A DNA stretch of 64,000 bases from Lytechinus pictus (taxonomy: Eukaryota): the NCBI RefSeq assembly GCF_037042905.1, contig NC_087251.1:42100001-42164000 (forward strand), given 5' to 3'. The position numbers and the translations under genes were made by a program. Under the pieces are notes generated by a model. The model saw only the letters and a list, made by a program, of their open reading frames with translations. It made no database searches and was not told the origin of the DNA. Below are positions 19,651 through 64,000 of the stretch, piece by piece. Numbering within the stretch: the stretch's first letter is position 1; the number at the start of each line of letters is the position of its first letter.

Positions 19651-19691
19651 AATGTTGTGGAAAGGAAGGTGGCAACTTTCTATTTACTTAC

Positions 19692-19818
19692 CTGATATAA
19701 GTATTAGCATTTCCATCTGGGAATGTATAAGGGTGTTTCTTGCGAAAGACATGTCCTACCCGACTGCATGGAATGATTTCTAAACTACCTCCACACTGCC
19801 ACACTCTGAAAGAGATTT
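19692..19818 (-). CDS. GALNT: GalNAc-transferase exon ([42 protein letters not shown])
   Basis: Gal/GalNAc-T motif and flexible loop; [10 protein letters not shown] resembles vertebrate GALNT14/16; gtAG / GTAAGT; 127 nt, phase 1-2. Confidence 0.98.
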
Positions 19819-20444
19819 CTACAAGATACAACAAAATAAGTAGTCAAGATTGTGGCCTGCCTCTCAGGCTACACCTTAAGATGTACTTCAGTTTGGAATA
19901 CTGAGAATGGCAAACAATTACCACTTTCCTTTTTTAGATATTTAATAAGTTTTATTTTGTATCAAACGTATTGTTGATTGTACATGGTATACCTTTCATT
20001 CTTTACACTTTTTTTTTCTGCTTTTGACAAAGTTAACTATCCCTTTAAAAATGAGCATTAGGAAAAAAACCTGAAAAATAACATCTACATGATTCATACA
20101 TAAAAAAAATAATAACATATATGAATCTTCTGTAAAACATAAGTTGAAAGAAGAAAGGAAAACAATAAAACTGCTTAAAAACTAGTGAGATTTAGGATAA
20201 AGGGATTCCACTAAGGCTTGATAAAAAATTCTGAAAGTCATATATAGAATGAACACTTTCTTACATGAAAAATGTGTTTTCTATAGCAGAAAATATAATG
20301 AAAGAATCTGATTTCAGACTTTAGTCTAAAAAGTGGCACCCATGATAATATTAGCACCTCCTGAACCAAAAGAGAATAAGCTATGATATTCTGAAACCCA
20401 TCCTAACGTGGAGGAAACACAAACTGATATTGAGTGACAGTTAA

Positions 20445-25908: not shown

Positions 25909-25993
25909 TGTATAGGCATTGTTGGATCTTTTCTCTTATACTTCTGTTCTGATGACATATGCTCCCATTTGAAATGAAGACTCCAATCAAAGC
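25909..25993 (-). CDS. GALNT: GalNAc-transferase exon ([28 protein letters not shown])
   Basis: GFDWxLxFKW motif; gtAG / GTAAGT; 85 nt, phase 1-2. Confidence 0.97.
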
Positions 25994-38590: not shown

Positions 38591-39295
38591 GGTGGTGGGT
38601 TATTGAGCACTACAGTTATGTATACCATCCTAAAAGAGCATTCTTGTAATATAGAGGTATTTCAAGACTTTTTTATCAGGATATTTATTACAGAATTTCC
38701 TTTATCATATTCACATTCCTCCCCAGTTCACCAACTCATTTCATTTTGGTGTTGCTGCTGAAAATGATTACTTAATTGAAGTTTTCAGGTGTATTTCTTT
38801 AAGTGCTATACAAAATAGATTCAACACATAGGCCTACGCCTAAAATAATGTTGTTATATTAATAATAATAATAGTAACATATTTTACCCAGGGTAGCCAC
38901 TGTTTGTTTGTATGGCTCTATGTAAAACAACCAGACAATGTGTTATCACTAACATCTTAGATTGTAAAATTTATAATACTAAAATTATCACATCTACAGA
39001 TCATAAACAATGTGAAGAAGTATTTTAATCTGACCCATGGCATAGTTTCTTTCAGTAAGAAGTCTAATGACATTGTGCTGTTCAACACCCAAATGAGCTA
39101 AATGGGATCCTGACTGGAAGTCATGACTTGCAACACAGAAGCTTGTAATAGCTGCTCTGCTAAAGATAGGGTCATTATGCTGTACTATTGTGGAGCTCTT
39201 AGAGAATTCTTGTAAATCAAGTATTACTAGTACTTCATTAAGAGCATCACCTTCCGGTCATCTTTCCCCAACAAAATACCGTGTGCTGCACCTGA

Positions 39296-39716
39296 CCATT
39301 TCCATCATCCTCATCATTACCATAATCATCATCATCATCGACAGCAGCATCAGCATCATCATCATCATCTTCATCGTCACCAACATCATCATCACCATCA
39401 TCATTATCATCATCATCACCATCATCACCATCTCCACCACCATCACCATCACCATCATCATCATCACCATCACCATCACCATCATCATCATCATCATCAT
39501 CTTCATCATCATCAACATCATCATCACCATCATCACCACCATCATCACCATCATCATCACCATCATCAACAGCATCATCATCATCATCTTCATCATCATC
39601 ACCACCACCACCACCTTCACCATCATCATCATCATCATCATCATCAACAGCATCATCATCATCATCTTCATCATCATCACCACCACCACCACCTTCACCA
39701 TCATCACCATCATCAC

Positions 39717-39748
<32 letters not shown>

Positions 39749-39948
39749 CCATCATCACCACCATCATCACCATCATCATCACCATCATCAACAGCATCAT
39801 CATCATCATCTTCATCATCATCACCACCACCACCACCTTCACCATCATCACCATCATCATCATCACCACCACCATCATCATCATCACCACCACCATCATC
39901 ATCATCACCACCACCACCATCATCATCATCATAATCGTCATCATCATC

Positions 39949-39992
<44 letters not shown>

Positions 39993-40177
39993 CAGCATCA
40001 TCATCATCATCTTCATCATCATCACCACCACCACCACCTTCACCATTATCATCATCATCATCACCATCATCATCATCCAGTGGGTTCCCTTTTTTCATTT
40101 CTGTATATTATATTTTTTTGTGTTTTGCTAAATACATTGTAACTTTTGTTAAATTTTGGAATGAAAAAGAATAAATG

Positions 40178-42277: not shown

Positions 42278-43968
42278 ATTGAATATGTCTAAGATCTGTT
42301 GCTCAAAAATTTATAAATTACTGTTCCATATTAGGTCCACGCATATTAAAATCATTTTTTTTATGCTGTTCATGATGATAATATATATTTAGATCCCCTT
42401 CCACTTTTCAAGAAGATATTTATACCTGTTATTAACTTGTAAAATCATACTTTCTGTACCATCATTAAATCAGTAAAATTACAATTATGATACAATATTC
42501 AATCAAATAATAATAATAATAGCATTGAGTTCAAGTAAAAGATACTTGATCCCAACTAGATTGAGTTATTCATTAAATATCTTATAAGAGGATTGTTTGC
42601 TTAATACTTCAGAATAGTGTTACCAATGGCTCTATACATCAAGGACCTATACTGGAGAGGCTAGTGATGAGATGATGGCCAATGAATAAGGGTAATTCAA
42701 GATCTTAACAATGGGCATATGCAGCAGGGGTGGGGGGGAATTCCCCCCAAGAAATTTTGAATACTTACATTTTTTTTACTGAAAATGTTCACAAAATTCA
42801 CCACAAGTATGCACGAAATCCTCCAATTTCACTTTACAAAAAGTAAAAGCACCCAAATAACAAGCTTGGTCACTTTGCTCCCTTGCTTTAAACTTTTTTT
42901 TTAAAGTCTACTTATCCTGCCCCCGCAACAAATTCTGCGTACAGCTATAATCTAATCCTATTAACCCTTTCAGTCTCTTAGAAGATTTAAATTCATACCA
43001 AATTATGTCCTTTTATCACATTTTATTTTCCCCTTTATCTTTTTCTACGATATTTGAGAACATATGGAGACTTGTACTTATTCTCTTTCAATTATGAGTC
43101 TCTCTTGATCATATTTATATCATACTCCTTAATTTCACTGGATCAATAGTGTCTTTCACTTGTTGTTGACTGAATTTCACCTCTATTCTTTAAGTGACAT
43201 TTGTGTGAAGCATTTGTATGTTCACTCGAAATTCACTCCAAATTGCGTGATCCTTGATGTCACTACCAATGGGAGTTAAAAACGATTGAAAATGCACTCT
43301 CTTTTTTTTTCTAGAGAGAGAGAGAGAGCATTCCATTTAATTATAATGAAATGCAATGAAAATGAAAAGAAATAATAGTGGTTGGCAGCTCCCAAAGGAC
43401 ATCAATAATTGTCACCATATTTTTTTCTTTTAGAGCATCGATTATATCACTTATGCCATTCTTGGATAGCAAAGGCAATATCCATTGTACGTTCAATAGA
43501 ACCAACCATTTTAAATAAACAATTGAAGCAAAATTGCAAATGCATTTTACAATCTTAAATGCAGATTTTCAGACTGCCTCAAGCTGTGCATGCAAATTGG
43601 CTCAATAGGAATTTCAATGATTTCAAAATACACCACCAGGAAAAATAGAAAGAGGAAAAGAACAAGATGATAGGATGTATATATATATATATATATATTG
43701 ATACTCCCTAGGATTTATTTCAAGGGTTACCTTTACCTCAAAAGGACTTTCAAAGGTGATGGAACAATTTTCAATATTGATTAAAAAAACATCTCATATC
43801 TCCCATGGGAATGGTATTTAATACTTCTTGGTTTCATTCTTTCATTGGATGATACGGTAACATTAGGATATTCATAAGTAGCAAAGAGAGAGTCGCACCC
43901 CCTCCCCCACTAGGTCTCTCGACTCCCTGGATCTGCGGCTGATTATCATCATCATTCATGAACATTAC

Positions 43969-44056
43969 CTCCCCTTAGGTCCGGTGAAGCTCCAACGTAG
44001 TTGAACGTTTGTGTGTTGATGACATCGATGATGGGACTCACTACTCTTGTTGGATC
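43969..44056 (-). CDS. GALNT: GalNAc-transferase alternative exon A ([30 protein letters not shown]), canonical GALNT2-like version
   Basis: VVSPIIDVI...DLRGG motif; caaAG / GTAATG; 88 nt, phase 0-1, joins 25993 in frame. Confidence 0.95.
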
Positions 44057-44058
44057 CT

Positions 44059-45377
44059 TTGAGGGGTAAGGAAAAGCAAGAGGGGGGTAACGAAACAGAG
44101 GGGAAAGCGCAGGTGGTAGGAGTATTATGGGATAGCGAGGTGGTGGTGGTAGTAGTGGTGGTGGTGGTGGTAAAGGGTAGAAAGAATAGATAAACAGAGA
44201 TGCAGGATTGTAATGGTGTCAGTGATTGTGATTAGTTTTAATGCCATGAGAAATGGAAAAATTAAATAAAAATGAAAGCAATTTGATGTTGTGTATTGAC
44301 AGATAGTTAAACATATTGTACACCATGATTTCATGAGGTTATAATGCATCATGCAGCGTGGGATATGAGTGGGGCATGTGTTGCGGGATGTTGTTTTAAT
44401 AGATTGATATTAAACATTCATCAGGACACATGAGAACACATTTGATAGGGTACGTCGACAGACGGTGGATTAAGTACGATAATTTAATGAGAATATATTG
44501 GATGTCATGCATTAAGATGGGGTTTGGTTTCAATGCAATTAGCATCAATATTGATTAGAATGAAATTAAAAAGGATAAATACAAATTGAAAGTCAAGTTG
44601 AGCGGATATAGGGAGAAGACACTTGAAGCAATATTGGGGTAGGATGTCAAGTTTTGAAAACATATAGCATGTTTTAGGAAGAAATTAATGAGAAGTGATG
44701 GGAAAATGGAAAGTCATGCAAGAGGGGTACAATGTTAGGCATATTTAGGATTAGAGAATTACAAGTTTTAAGAGTGAGCAAGATTTATAAAGTGAATCAT
44801 TACAAATAGTACCAAGTGTGATAGAGAGAAAAATGAAGGGTAATATAATGGTATAGGAAAAGTGACATTTAAAATGCACACAGGGTTATAAAACAAAAGT
44901 TGTGAAATTTAAATAAAATGCCATCAGATTGAAATAAATAAAAGAATGAATGCAAGAGAACGAGAGAGAGATACAGAGTAAGCCGAGATAAATACCAGTG
45001 CGCAAACAAAGTTGTATCATTTTAATAATTTTTCATCATGACAGAAGAGCAAATGAAGGCAAATATCAAAATATATCCAAAAGCAATTAGTTTTTCATTA
45101 TTCCAAAGGAATCAGTGTGTTTTATTTGAGGAAGGATTACCAAGGTGATTGGTATGAAATAAGAAAACAGCAAATATGGGTTGAATATATATCCATTATA
45201 TTAGTAGCAAACAAATGCATGCATATATATGCAACAGGAGAATAAGTTAAAATATAATGGGTGATGATGTAAGGAAGAGAAAGGAGGGTAGTTTGGGGAA
45301 CGGAAAAATGAGAGAGAGAGAGAAGGGGGGGGGGGGGGTTAGGAATACAAAAGAAAATGAACAAACACTTGGTTAGT
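44059..45377 (-). promoter_or_regulatory. Very long AG-exclusion zone and putative distant branch point/polypyrimidine tract for exon A
   Basis: Only one sense-strand AG (plus-strand CT at 44622-44623) between 44059 and 45367. CTAAC at 45376-45372 and 45342-45338, followed by a C/T tract. Confidence 0.7.
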
Positions 45378-48133
45378 TGCAATTCATTCACTATGTGATG
45401 TATTAGAATAAAAAAATAACCAGCCCAGGCAAGTTATCAACCCTTTATTTTCACTTCAAACAAAAGCAGCAAAACAACACAATATTGTTAAAATTTCAAA
45501 CAAAAACCCTCGAGAAAAACAAGAGCTTCTTGAGAGAATGTCAAACAGTATTAGCATAAGTACTTCCCACATACTGATCACTGCACTCACATCATGTAAA
45601 CAATCCAGGAGATTTGGGAGGAAAAAGGTGATATTATTGAAGTTTCATGCTAATAGAAACAATATCCATTCATCATCTGCCAGAGAAAACGACCACGATA
45701 ATCCTCTTTATTTCATCCTAAAACACATGATTGCTCGATTCCAGTACAATAATGCACAGTTGATTATCTTTTTTCATTTTTTTTTCATGAACATCAAATC
45801 CTCTGCATTCGCATTCCCAATCATACCAGATTTTCTCTACATCCCTCACTGCATTTTGCTTCCAGCAAATTTCATTACAGATTGAGAGAGGATATTAACT
45901 TATTCCAAACAATAAGAAAACATTTATTGCACTAGAATAGACATTCATCTTGTAAGTTAAAACATTGTGAGTTTCTCCTAAATTCAAGTACTTTTTAATG
46001 TGAAACTGGAATATATAGGAGACTACAAATAACCGCATGGGAGAAACCTTTTTAATGACACCTTTGATCCAGGGTGTTTCTCTCTCCTTGGTGTCCAAGA
46101 CACATGTGTAATGAACTGTGAGGCGTTATGTTTACTCGCTAAGCACTTCTAGAACACATTGGTTTGGTGTTGCCCTACTGGAAAATACACTCTATTTGTC
46201 GAGGACTTAAATAAATCCAGAGCAATTGCAAATAGTGACTGGTCAAACAATTCATATATATTCCCATATGAACAGAATTCTTTTTAAATCTCAAATTATT
46301 TCAATTCAAATATTTCATACCTCACAAGATCTTAATCCAAAATTAATGTTTTGCTTATCACTATTCATATCAAAATTCAAATCCACAAAGGTTGAATTTA
46401 AATCTAAATTTGGTCAATTCACCACTTTTCTAGATTTATTTTAAAATCCTATAAATTTAGAATATGTACAGAACAGCAATGTATAGTGCATCTGCATACT
46501 TCATAATAACTAATGGAGCTGAATCGAAACACTGATTATTTCTGACTTTACCAAAGTGCTGATGCAGTTATTGGATACATTGTGTTTTTTTTCTTTTGTT
46601 TTTAAAAAAATGTCCAGGTGTAAACCTGACCATTACATGACTTGAGAAAAAAAAACAAGTCACACCAATCGTCAAAGTGCCTCAAACATAATTGACTGTG
46701 GAATTGGAGAGCTATTTATTCAGCTCCAGGCTTTACTTGAAACATTTGTGAGGGCGGGTTTCCTGATAAATCTTGTATCAGGTGACTCAGACGTTCATCG
46801 GAAATTGTTCATAAATCGTGGCCTAAACTAATTTTTTATAGTTCTGTACATATTCTGATCATGTTTGACAAGCACTGGAATTCTTTTATCATGTAAACAT
46901 TTCAAAAGGAACCATACATGAATATCAAACAAACATTTCTGAACCAAAACACCAAGCCTATCCTGGTCTCCTAAAAATAATTTCAATCAACTAAAAATCA
47001 AAGAGTTCAGAGCACTTATGGTGGGACCCATATCTTCTGCACAATTAAATCAACACAAACTGGGTCGGCTTATAACCCAAGGAAGCATGTAAAAGGCCTT
47101 ATCTCAGAAAAAAATCAATATTTCAAATTTACTCTATCAGGGCACAGATGTTTGAATCACAAGAATAAGTCTCTGTTCGCCTACTAAAAATACAATTTCT
47201 CCATCTTAATGGTGTCACATCATTACTCATATATTACTTTGATTTTTTTTTAATTTAACATGATTATTTTGCATCATTACCTCTCATTGTCTATGGGCAA
47301 GCATATTTTCATTTAAAAAAAAAGGAGCAGAAATGGCTCAAAATGCCTCAAAATAATTTTTTTTTTGCCTTTACAGTTTTTAATACTGCTCATGATGCCC
47401 AGATTCCTATTAATCTTTAATATCATGATCCAGGCGAAACACGATACCTTGGATCATGGTGTAGACGGTTCAGAATACTATTCTCAAGGTAATTTTCCAT
47501 AATTCTGGAATCACTACATGGTCTACTCGAGTCTTGAGAGATATAAAACCCATCATAGAGAACGGTATTTTACTTCAACTTCACGAACAGGGTCATTAAC
47601 ATATGCAAGAACACTACCACATAACCATGATGACAACAAGTTAATTATTAACATAAGTATTTATTAAAAACATAGCCCCTTCTAGCTGTCAGTTTGTGAT
47701 TCACATCATTTTGCACTTGCTGTATCTAAACTACACGCACTTCACACAATCTGCTTGTTATTAGAATAACATATAATGCACTATAATACTTGTTTGACCC
47801 AGTTACATGTTCCAGGAAGAATAACTTGGAGATAGAAAAAGAATGATGAATTGCAATGTAATTGATATATCAGCACGGTATGCATGGATGAAGAGCGATG
47901 AGTTTCTGCGGAATGCACAAAACAGTCAAGGCTTGCTTGCTTTGCTACCTAACATACATGTTAAACCCACAAAGCAAGTTTTAAGAACAGCAGCTCAAGC
48001 ACATGAGTAGATCAGCTCACATTAAAGAGGTTACCAAAAACACACCCACTGTGAGAGACACAAGGTAGTAACTGTCAGATAATAGTTAATGACCTGTTGG
48101 CTCTCAACAATCAAACCAATCCCAAGTCTGTAC

Positions 48134-48221
48134 CTCCACGAAGGTTCTCCATCGTTCTTGTGTAGTTGAATGTTTCCAAACTGATGATGTCAATAGTGGG
48201 GCTAACTACTACTTCTGGCTT
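48134..48221 (-). CDS. GALNT: GalNAc-transferase alternative exon B (KPEVVVSPTIDIISLETFNYTRTMENLRGG), paralogue of exon A
   Basis: Same 88-nt length and 0-1 phase as exon A; conserved VVSPxIDxI, TFNY and LRGG; gcAG / GTACAG; no stop codon. Confidence 0.88.
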
Positions 48222-48677
48222 CTGCTCGCCCAGTTTAATGAAAGAAAAACAGAAATCAAAACAAAGGGGGATGTTTAAGAAAAAGGGTCCCTACTAAGAG
48301 AGTAGTAGATTTTATGAAAATACACAGAGGTTGAGCTAAGAATACTTAGAATCATGAAAAAACTCACACTTTTTTTATTTTTAAAGGGGGGGGGGGGTCG
48401 ATGGTAAGATAGCGACGTGAGGAACAACCTGTTTGAAAATACATTCATGTAATGCTTGCTTGTATGTTACTGAATTAATGACAAATGTATTCTACCCCAG
48501 TAAAAACTCCATGGAAACAAACAAAATAAAAATACATAGTATATTCACATCTTCATTAGATGTATTAAGGTTTATAATCACTTCAAGCAGCTGATCTACT
48601 TCTTAGATAGTCTAATACCATCTGGGCTAAACCTATTTGGTCTAATTGCTGCTTGGTCTAGACCACACTGGGTTTGA

Positions 48678-49271
48678 AGGGATGGTCCAGGCGGGAGATA
48701 TTTATATCTCAATAAATAGAGTAAAATTCACAGAGCAGAATGCTGAAAATTTCATCACAATCGGATGACAAAGTTATTGAATTTTAAAGATTTCCATTAT
48801 TCCGGTGAAACAGCTCTAGGCATGTCTTTATGAATATTCATTAGGTGGGGTGATGATGTCATATGCCCACTTTTTCTTTTGTATTTTATTATATGAAATA
48901 GGTTTATTCAAAAATGTTCTACTAAGAACTAAAACAATTGGATTTACAACTGATTAAGTGCATTAGTTATTCATTGCCGCAACTTATTTCATCATAATGG
49001 AGACACATCATTTACACATGTATGAAAAAATGAAACATTTATCATTTCATGTAATAACTTATGAAAAAGGAAAGTGGGGATGTGACATCATCAGCCCACC
49101 TAATGAATATTCATGATGATGTGCATAAGTGTTTTCACAAAATATTGATAAACTTTATAATTCAATAACTCTGTTATTTGTTATCCGATTTTGATGAAAT
49201 TTTCAGCATTTTGCTCTGTGAATTTTACTCTATTTATTTAGATATAAATATTTTCAGCCCGGACCATCCCT
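48678..49271. mobile_element. Kolobok-like element inserted in an older TTGGTCTAA/TTAGACCAA-rich repeat
   Basis: AGGGATGGTCC / GGACCATCCCT-TTAA; long internal inverted arms. Confidence 0.85.
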
Positions 49272-63200: not shown

Positions 63201-64000
63201 AATCATGGACCTATCACAAATGGACATTCAACGAATCCCCTCCTTTGGGCCAAAGACCGTCACCGCTAATCCTTTTATAAACAGAGCGCTGGCAGCTGAC
63301 GCCCATCAAGCCGGTCGTAAAACACGCTCTCACTGATGGACAGCGGAAATCAATTGTACGCTGCTCCTACCCATTGCGATGTTGTTCGTTCACTTTATCA
63401 AAAGCAACGCACATCAGCGAACGTTAGCGCTATGAAAATGATAGCAGAAACAAGAAAACAGGCGTGCATAAACGTATTTATTACGTACATCGCGAACAAC
63501 CGCAAATGAAATACATTGACATCACCTTGCAGATCAGTATATCTACGGCAAAAAAACAGTTGAAATTCGACGAAAAAATCTGCGGAAAAACGTTAAAAAT
63601 TCATCTTTTTCGGACAGTATTGATGTCGATAGTAGCGCTTACCTTCGGTCAGAAGTTGATTTTCATTTGGGCATAGAATTCCACAGGATTGATGAAATTT
63701 AACAGGATTTTTTTTTATGGTCAGACGACAATCGCACATTATAGACAGCCTAAAATAATGTACTGAAAAACCGGATATGAATTGCGCATTGCATTCTAGG
63801 TAATGTAGGGACTTTCCCTATTGGCAATCGGGGCTACAACATGACCGTCTTTGGTCGAAAGAGGGCCAGTGATCGATCGGTGACGATCATTGGCCGAAAG
63901 GATCTTGTGTAAACAATCTCCCCGGGCGGTCGTCGTAAAAACCGCGTAAAGAGAAAGTTAAGGGTTAGACAGCAATTTTGACAGCTGGAAACAGGTGGTG

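Follow-up and report, generated by a model that had tools for sequence, protein, structure and literature searches.

A tandem-duplicated pair of probably mutually exclusive exons in the catalytic domain of a sea urchin GalNAc-transferase gene

We analyzed a stretch of 64,000 nucleotides (nt) of the sea urchin Lytechinus pictus (contig NC_087251.1, positions 42,100,001 to 42,164,000 of the forward strand; hereafter the window, numbered from its first letter), whose minus strand carries part of a gene predicted to encode a polypeptide GalNAc-transferase (GalNAc-T). This gene contains two homologous 88-nt exons, B (48221..48134) and A (44056..43969), upstream of a shared exon D that begins at 25993, and the duplication itself is confirmed. 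We consider it likely that A and B are true mutually exclusive, tandem-duplicated exons in a T2/T14/T16 orthologue and that the two isoforms differ, most probably, in acceptor preference. According to this proposal, every mRNA would contain either A or B, flanked in each case by one and the same upstream exon and by the exon at 25993, and the 88-nt length would shift transcripts with both exons or neither into an early stop, such that only one-exon mRNAs would encode the enzyme. Exon B would have arisen from an ancestral-type A prior to the divergence of sea urchins and sea stars and would have been retained since. Both isoforms are predicted to be active GalNAc-transferases with different acceptor-peptide preferences, for which a change in the loop 264-269 (numbering of human GalNAc-T2) beside the acceptor groove would be the likely source.

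A first-pass annotation of this DNA had described two exons of exactly 88 nt, both phase 0 to 1, with open frames and AG/GT splice sites, which had diverged strongly within unrelated flanks, and the sequence bears out each of these statements. Exon B lies on the minus strand between an acceptor ending in ...gcgagcag and the donor GGAG/gtacag, and exon A lies on the same strand between ...cctcaaag and GGAG/gtaatg; an intron of 4077 nt (44057..48133, minus strand) separates them. Each exon begins on a codon boundary, is free of stops inside and has the first base of a Gly codon as its last nucleotide, the product of exon B being KPEVVVSPTIDIISLETFNYTRTMENLRG plus that first base. The two exons are identical at 53 of 88 nt and at 15 of 29 amino acids (aa), with 16/29, 21/29, and 15/29 identities at codon positions 1, 2, and 3, respectively. 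When A and B were compared by blastn together with 400 nt on each side, a single match of 49 nt was obtained, and it lay inside the exons; the remaining matches reached at most 23 nt with E values of at least 0.33, showing no similarity between the 400-nt flanks. We also searched six-frame pieces of the window with a profile of 37 distinct homologous 30-residue segments. Exactly two pieces matched, the open reading frames (ORFs) of exon A (E value of 2e-20) and exon B (E value of 7e-13), and the next best piece had an E value of 1.8. Thus, the profile finds no third copy of the exon in the window, and the resemblance between A and B is not due to chance. The proportion of nonsynonymous differences between A and B (pN of 0.338) was below that of synonymous differences (pS of 0.615), a ratio that is indicative only, as the synonymous sites are near saturation.

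The reading frame constrains how the two exons can be used. With A alone or B alone, the frame is open through exons D to K. With A and B together, a stop occurs two codons into exon D, and with neither exon, a stop occurs in exon E. Because both of these forms stop early, a productive mRNA must carry exactly one of A and B, in line with the frameshift that the first-pass annotation had deduced from the exon length. Transcripts containing both exons or neither would be expected to be removed by nonsense-mediated decay. As for how the choice is made, steric exclusion can be ruled out, given the 4077 nt of intron between A and B, and both exons have GT-AG sites. Inverted repeats of at least 16 nt within 43400-49200 amounted to 22 pairs, all of them AT-rich or transposon-like, and within the same interval no pair links a site adjoining both exons in the manner of docking/selector pairing (Dscam type). 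A transposon-like hairpin, formed by an inverted-repeat pair of 64 nt at 83% and 48 nt at 75% complementarity, lies at 48765-49177, 0.5 to 1 kb upstream of B.

To see the exons in transcripts, contigs and reads from four public runs (X1, X3, X8, and X9) were placed on 43900-48300. In RNA contigs, the last 30 nt of the upstream exon are joined to both A and B. The join to B is found in X1 record 7 (119 nt, depth of 16.4), in which 27 letters of the upstream exon are followed by 48224..48133, i.e., exon B. Reverse-complemented, the nongenomic letters of this record read ..CTACCTCCTCTCCTAGAACGAGTTGCT and translate to ..LPPLLERVA, the end of the upstream exon as it stands in the urchin transcript-derived protein P0143 (..GWLPPLLERVAQ followed by D..). 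The join of the upstream exon to A at 44056 is found in X1 record 3 and in X3 record 9 (a 2601-nt contig with a depth of 31). Since A and B share their upstream splice partner, B does not belong to a separate paralogous gene fragment, the case that the first-pass annotation had said would refute its reading. Downstream of A, X1 records 1 and 2 (85 nt; depths of 14 and 14.5) run from 44027 to the A donor and continue with the reverse complement of 25992..25968, so the junction 43969->25993, from A to D, was read directly. X1 record 3 is continuous through the first 59 nt of exon A; thus, X1 has no second path into this exon from B, and no B-to-A join was listed in the contigs of the runs over 43900-48300. 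In X1, the depth was 16.4 for the join of the upstream exon to B versus 19.6 for that to A and 7.5 plus 7.2 for B to the next exon versus 14 plus 14.5 for A to the next exon. These values suggest that B accounts for between one-third and almost one-half of the X1 junctions, depth being a poor measure of expression. Exon B is thus not rare in X1.

The same contigs revealed two silent variants. One is a G>A change (plus strand) at 43997 in X1, by which a TAC codon of exon A becomes TAT (Tyr); the other, a C/T at the second base of exon D (25992), is implied by the structure of the X1 contigs. Both alleles appear in the A as well as the B junction contigs. A (CCA)n-like run at 44134-44180, just upstream of the polypyrimidine tract of exon A, was skipped as a repeat in the placement of reads, and pile-ups of foreign contigs and reads with loose ends on both sides were observed at 45304-45340 and 46282-46450, which are probably dispersed repeats.

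We then related the alternative exon to the structure of human GalNAc-T2 by aligning P0143 to 2ffu_A. Adding 70 to the chain index gives the published T2 numbering, as checked on DSH 224-226, His359, Phe361, and His365. The alternative exon corresponds to T2 residues 244-273 and supplies the strand and loop that come after the DXH metal site. Lira-Navarrete et al. (2015, PMC4432651) identify Val255, Leu270, Phe280, Trp282, Tyr284, Phe361, His365, and Phe377 as the T2 residues in hydrophobic contact with the acceptor peptide. The segment 244-273 holds two of these, Val255 (the V of IIDVIN) and Leu270 (the L of DLRGG), which supports the earlier statement that it helps line the groove; Phe280, Trp282, and Tyr284 fall in the shared next exon, in its FKWDY and not in the FDW named in that statement. 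Every B exon has Ile in place of Val255, and Leu270 is kept in the B exons. The loop 264-269, which immediately precedes the contact residue Leu270, is VGASPD in A, TRTMEN in urchin B, and TAAMVD or TAAMTD in sea star B. Judged from these substitutions, it is plausible that A/B splicing switches acceptor specificity. Our literature search found no further paper on Val255 or Leu270 of T2.

To evaluate the age of the pair, sea star isoform pairs were taken from the 90% clusters of the sea star matches. Two RefSeq isoforms of Asterias amurensis, XP_071796160.1 (isoform X1) and XP_071796164.1 (isoform X2), of 561 aa each, show 13 differences, all in residues 234-258. Likewise, XP_022094288.1 (isoform X1) and XP_022094296.1 (isoform X2) of Acanthaster planci, of 546 aa each, show 15 differences, all in residues 220-243. 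Each pair consists of one A-type and one B-type protein (..SP.IDIISMHTF.YTAAM.DLRGG). The B exons of the urchin and the two sea stars (3/3) share IDIIS, Y-T, and a Met replacing the Ser of the GAS motif. In T2 numbering, all three have Ile255, Ser257, Thr264, and Met267, versus Val, Asn, Val/Ile, and Ser in 7/7 echinoderm A segments. Among 78 stored proteins with the segment (37 distinct), all are A-type except the two sea star B isoforms and three sea cucumber records. The latter, from Apostichopus japonicus (P0111, P0127, and P0130), have as their sole annotated segment a mosaic with B-like ends (EP.VVVSP and AMEDLRGG) and an A-like middle (IIDVIN), which is placed in the B clade. Across 20 isoform or cluster members, each of the species sampled (Nematostella, Clavelina, Styela, three lampreys, and Callorhinchus) yielded a single A-type segment. 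The A type, present from cnidarians to vertebrates, is the general animal form and probably ancestral, and B is probably a derived, echinoderm-type copy. The conservation sample extended to the groups named here, and the short Logan/RefSeq members of the urchin and sea cucumber clusters do not reach the exon region. Residues 223-263 of a sea star B isoform, used as a query, matched only themselves, the isoforms being hidden in 90% clusters.

In a maximum-likelihood tree of 20 segments, urchin B, both sea star B segments, and the sea cucumber segment formed one clade with support of 90/95, on 30 columns and with two long branches (urchin B and sea cucumber) meeting in it. Together, the sea star isoform pairs and the grouping of the B segments indicate that the exon pair predates the split between sea urchins and sea stars. 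These lineages separated several hundred million years ago. An old duplication under selection, as proposed in the first-pass annotation, thus gains support from the sea star isoforms, which differ only here, and from the urchin B exon, which groups with theirs.

Several points, given in this and the next two paragraphs together with the short alignment and long branches of the tree, weigh against our reading. Constraining urchin B to group with urchin A cost 14.2 log-likelihood units with a p value of 0.056 in the AU test (p-AU), so the rival topology, in which urchin A and B are together, is not formally rejected. Urchin B is also identical at 17 of 30 positions to two vertebrate A-type segments. 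Run X1 is taken as RNA by a guess from its record, and its contigs are spliced. The raw RNA reads placed from X8 (12 reads) and X9 (3 reads) include none on exon B, about 6 in 100 of each run having been read, which is too sparse to judge this exon; no RNA run was listed as holding exon B words, for the four words sampled. Furthermore, although the first-pass annotation had named two junctions to exon D, only that from A was read letter by letter, and the junction 48134->25993, from B, is deduced from the lengths and structure of contigs whose partner letters are unread. X1 records 6 and 8 (55 nt; depths of 7.5 and 7.2) carry the last 29 nt of B followed by 24/25 letters unlike the intron. These two records have partner stretches of the same lengths as the A-to-D contigs and differ from each other as records 1 and 2 do, one fitting one base further into "gt," as a C in one allele and a T in the other at the second base of exon D would produce, and they stop after 26 partner letters, as a graph of 31-letter words must if A and B converge on the same exon; A and B share their last four letters, GGAG. 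On these grounds, B is probably joined to exon D at 25993.

No urchin protein with exon B was found in a collection of 5.8 billion proteins, and the 50-aa open frame around B (P0121), compared with longer proteins, gave 12 candidates, none at an E value of ≤10. This absence is weak evidence, since the urchin models of the gene are truncated. In addition, B evolves faster than A, with 18/30 versus 24-25/30 identities between urchin and sea stars. The missing urchin records and the faster rate would both suit a B exon that is a functionless, decaying duplicate, splicing noise, or a fragment of a paralogue. We give hardly any credence to this explanation, as B has an open frame, two intact splice sites, and the length and phase of A, is joined to the upstream exon of A at a comparable depth, has matching exons in two sea star genera, and shows a pN below pS. 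As far as the data go, the sea star isoforms and the RNA contigs refute it.

A different picture of exon B was obtained from run X3. Records 15, 14, and 12 of this run contain the join of the upstream exon to B and then pass through the B donor unbroken to 45820, with depths of 13.8 to 16.6. This transcript, which keeps at least 2.4 kb of the intron 3' of B, is the only exon B form in X3; no branch was found at the B donor in this run, and the depth was 3.9 in the intron preceding B and zero over 44194-45222. The retained form would end the protein 7 codons past exon B, and part of exon B usage may therefore be unproductive. The X3 form may reflect a 3' end within the intron, intron detention, or priming on half-spliced pre-mRNA. 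If the first or second of these were the rule, B would mostly start an alternative 3' end or a detained intron, with its donor unused, and would lead to an inactive protein cut short (..LRGGTDLGLV-stop) or to a nuclear RNA. Besides the X3 records, the B donor GTACAG, which fits the consensus less well than GTAATG of A, speaks for this view. Nevertheless, we regard it as very unlikely. In two X1 contigs, the match to the genome breaks off precisely at the B donor, the sea star isoform X2 models are full-length enzymes with exon B, and a terminal exon needs no exact conservation of length and phase. Moreover, an A9 tract (45785-45777) begins 35 nt beyond the end of the X3 contig, no poly(A) signal is in the usual place, the sole AATAAA lying about 100 nt upstream at 45928-45923, and a few X8 reads extend beyond the contig end, in 45664-45810. 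Owing to the A9 tract, the missing signal, and the X8 reads, priming on half-spliced pre-mRNA is an equally good reading of the X3 records.

The X3 form also bears on whether a real either-or use of A and B changes glycosylation sites. B might instead alter stability, Golgi behavior, overall rate, or the amount of productive mRNA, and the retention of the next intron by the exon B form of X3 would indeed cut enzyme output. The named contacts barely change, given that Leu270 is kept and that the replacement of Val255 by Ile is conservative, vertebrate T14 having Ile at position 255. We think this alternative improbable, because the differences between A and B cluster in the loop beside the groove and are fixed by type in 3/3 B exons, because dosage control by itself needs no such long retention of a distinct sequence, and because the B form of X1 is spliced on both sides. 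We therefore retain mutually exclusive exons whose isoforms probably differ in acceptor preference as the best explanation.

The exons of the host gene were modeled by tblastn with two full-length echinoderm proteins (P0010 and P0009), and their splice sites were then checked. On the minus strand, exon D (25993-25909; 85 nt; tblastn E value of 1e-12), which carries the FKWE motif as the counterpart of Phe280/Trp282 of T2, is followed by exons E (22176-22073), F (19818-19692), G (17973-17881), H (15968-15885), I (10054-9922), J (7946-7827), and K (7163-6990, stop included). The reading frame is unbroken from exon A to the stop, and all introns of the model are GT-AG. The intron between A and D contains about 1 kb of a triplet-type low-complexity repeat (39127-40139), whose long open frames abound in His, Asp, Ser, Ile, or Met according to the frame and strand that are read. 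Neither P0010 nor P0009 gave a tblastn match in the window for residues 1-208, which include the DSH site; the corresponding exons should lie beyond position 64000, which would place the upstream exon outside the window.

On the basis of sequence comparison, the host gene is assigned to the T2/T14/T16 subfamily (Ib, family GT27) as the sea urchin orthologue of Strongylocentrotus purpuratus SpGalnt2. Human GalNAc-T2 was the best solved relative of the urchin protein (E value of 8.5e-187), ahead of PGANT9 (2e-125) and T1 (1e-121). A protein search with the 43-aa exon at 19819..19691 returned 1592 of 1600 candidates at an E value of ≤0.001; its named matches were GalNAc-T14, T16, and T2, and 6 of the 120 matches listed were from echinoderms. 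The Pfam domains PF00535, PF02709, and PF00652 are recorded on the relatives. With respect to catalytic motifs, the DSH of P0143 aligns to Asp224-His226 of T2, and exons E and F encode the Gal/GalNAc-T motif (..WGGEN..) and the His of ..CSRVGHVFR.. (His359 of T2), both of which can be aligned to T2. The C terminus, with the ricin-B lectin domain, is encoded by exons I to K, and the matching record P0007 carries PF00652. The last 280 aa are identical at 278/280 positions to each of the Lytechinus records P0007 and P0137. These public urchin models are truncated (P0006, 308 aa; P0007, 294 aa; P0137, 309 aa) and start at or after exon D, so that neither A, B, nor the N-terminal half of the catalytic domain is represented in them. 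The A/B pair is therefore unannotated in sea urchins. According to the available text of the corresponding study, SpGalnt2 (SpGalNAc-T2) is a subfamily Ib member that was cloned as a cDNA and is an active transferase (PMC5407767). In the same portion of that paper, "splic" refers to SpGalnt13 morpholinos in 4/5 places, "isoform" denotes a family member, and an alternative exon of SpGalnt2 is not mentioned. The paper also describes a "Green loop" with one conserved Pro and three Gly in SpGalNAc-T2; a match of this loop to that of exon A was considered but dropped, the loop being delimited in a figure only.

Alternative exons have precedents in GalNAc-T genes, and the novelty implied by the first-pass annotation was overstated on two counts, since a substitution of the same segment is already catalogued for GALNT7 and the sea star isoforms are already in RefSeq. 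The sea star RefSeq pairs resemble the urchin pair in gene, in the 30-residue segment, in comprising an A type and a B type, and in their equal protein lengths; unlike the urchin pair, they are automatic models from another echinoderm class, annotated there but not in urchins. Our literature search found no paper describing the echinoderm exon pair. In human GALNT7, the accessible part of a catalogue of tandem exon duplications lists an internal substitution (event 84) of two 61-aa exons, with Vertebrata as the last common ancestor and the pattern T.CTVPLID.I.GN.Y.I.P..GGDEDG.ARGAWDWS.LWKR (PMC8373072). Like the urchin pair, these two exons are alternatives, are homologous to each other, and have their place in the catalytic domain directly behind the DXH site. 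They span the ..PLIDVIN.. strand, the loop, and WDW..WKR, which by eye equals the segment of urchin A/B plus exon D. In contrast to the urchin gene, GALNT7 belongs to the T7/T10 subfamily, and its exons are 183 nt long, so the frame does not enforce exclusion. The GALNT7 and echinoderm exon pairs are independent in origin and probably represent parallel evolution at one structural spot. In its available part, a 2026 paper on GALNT7 treats exon 6 as skipped only.

Tandem-duplicated alternative exons, convergent between phyla, are also reported in the accessible parts of two sources for GALNT13, Drosophila Pgant5, and Caenorhabditis elegans gly-5 (PMC9741552, PMC8373072). These genes share this feature with the urchin gene but belong to the T1/T13 subfamily; in the same partial texts, the human GALNT13 event swaps a C-terminal (lectin-domain) exon and the fly event is listed as "different region." The A and B exons of the urchin map to the catalytic groove, as described above. 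In Drosophila, a single GalNAc-T gene reportedly gives two splice isoforms, PGANT9A and PGANT9B, with different substrate preferences, and this switch is said to lie in the lectin domain, in contrast to the urchin pair in the catalytic groove.

GalNAc-transferases set the starting places of mucin-type O-glycans, and how site choice is regulated beyond gene number is an open question. The gene described here supplies, by itself, a naturally occurring and minimal exchange of 30 residues that line the acceptor groove, with both forms present in RNA. On the practical side, current sea urchin models of this gene are truncated and do not contain either exon. The pair also draws attention to human GALNT7, whose own exon pair in this segment is unstudied. 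A broader interpretation, which we put forward tentatively and would not yet lean on, is that the strand and loop after DXH may be a recurrent target of splicing-based specificity, duplicated independently in an echinoderm T2-like gene and in vertebrate GALNT7, that the B isoform may be active with other O-glycosylation sites, and that sea cucumbers may have settled on the derived form. The two isoforms would constitute an evolution-vetted enzyme pair for mapping residues 244-270 (T2 numbering) against acceptor preference, and the sea urchin, with its injectable embryos and an orthologue already known to be active, suits such mapping.

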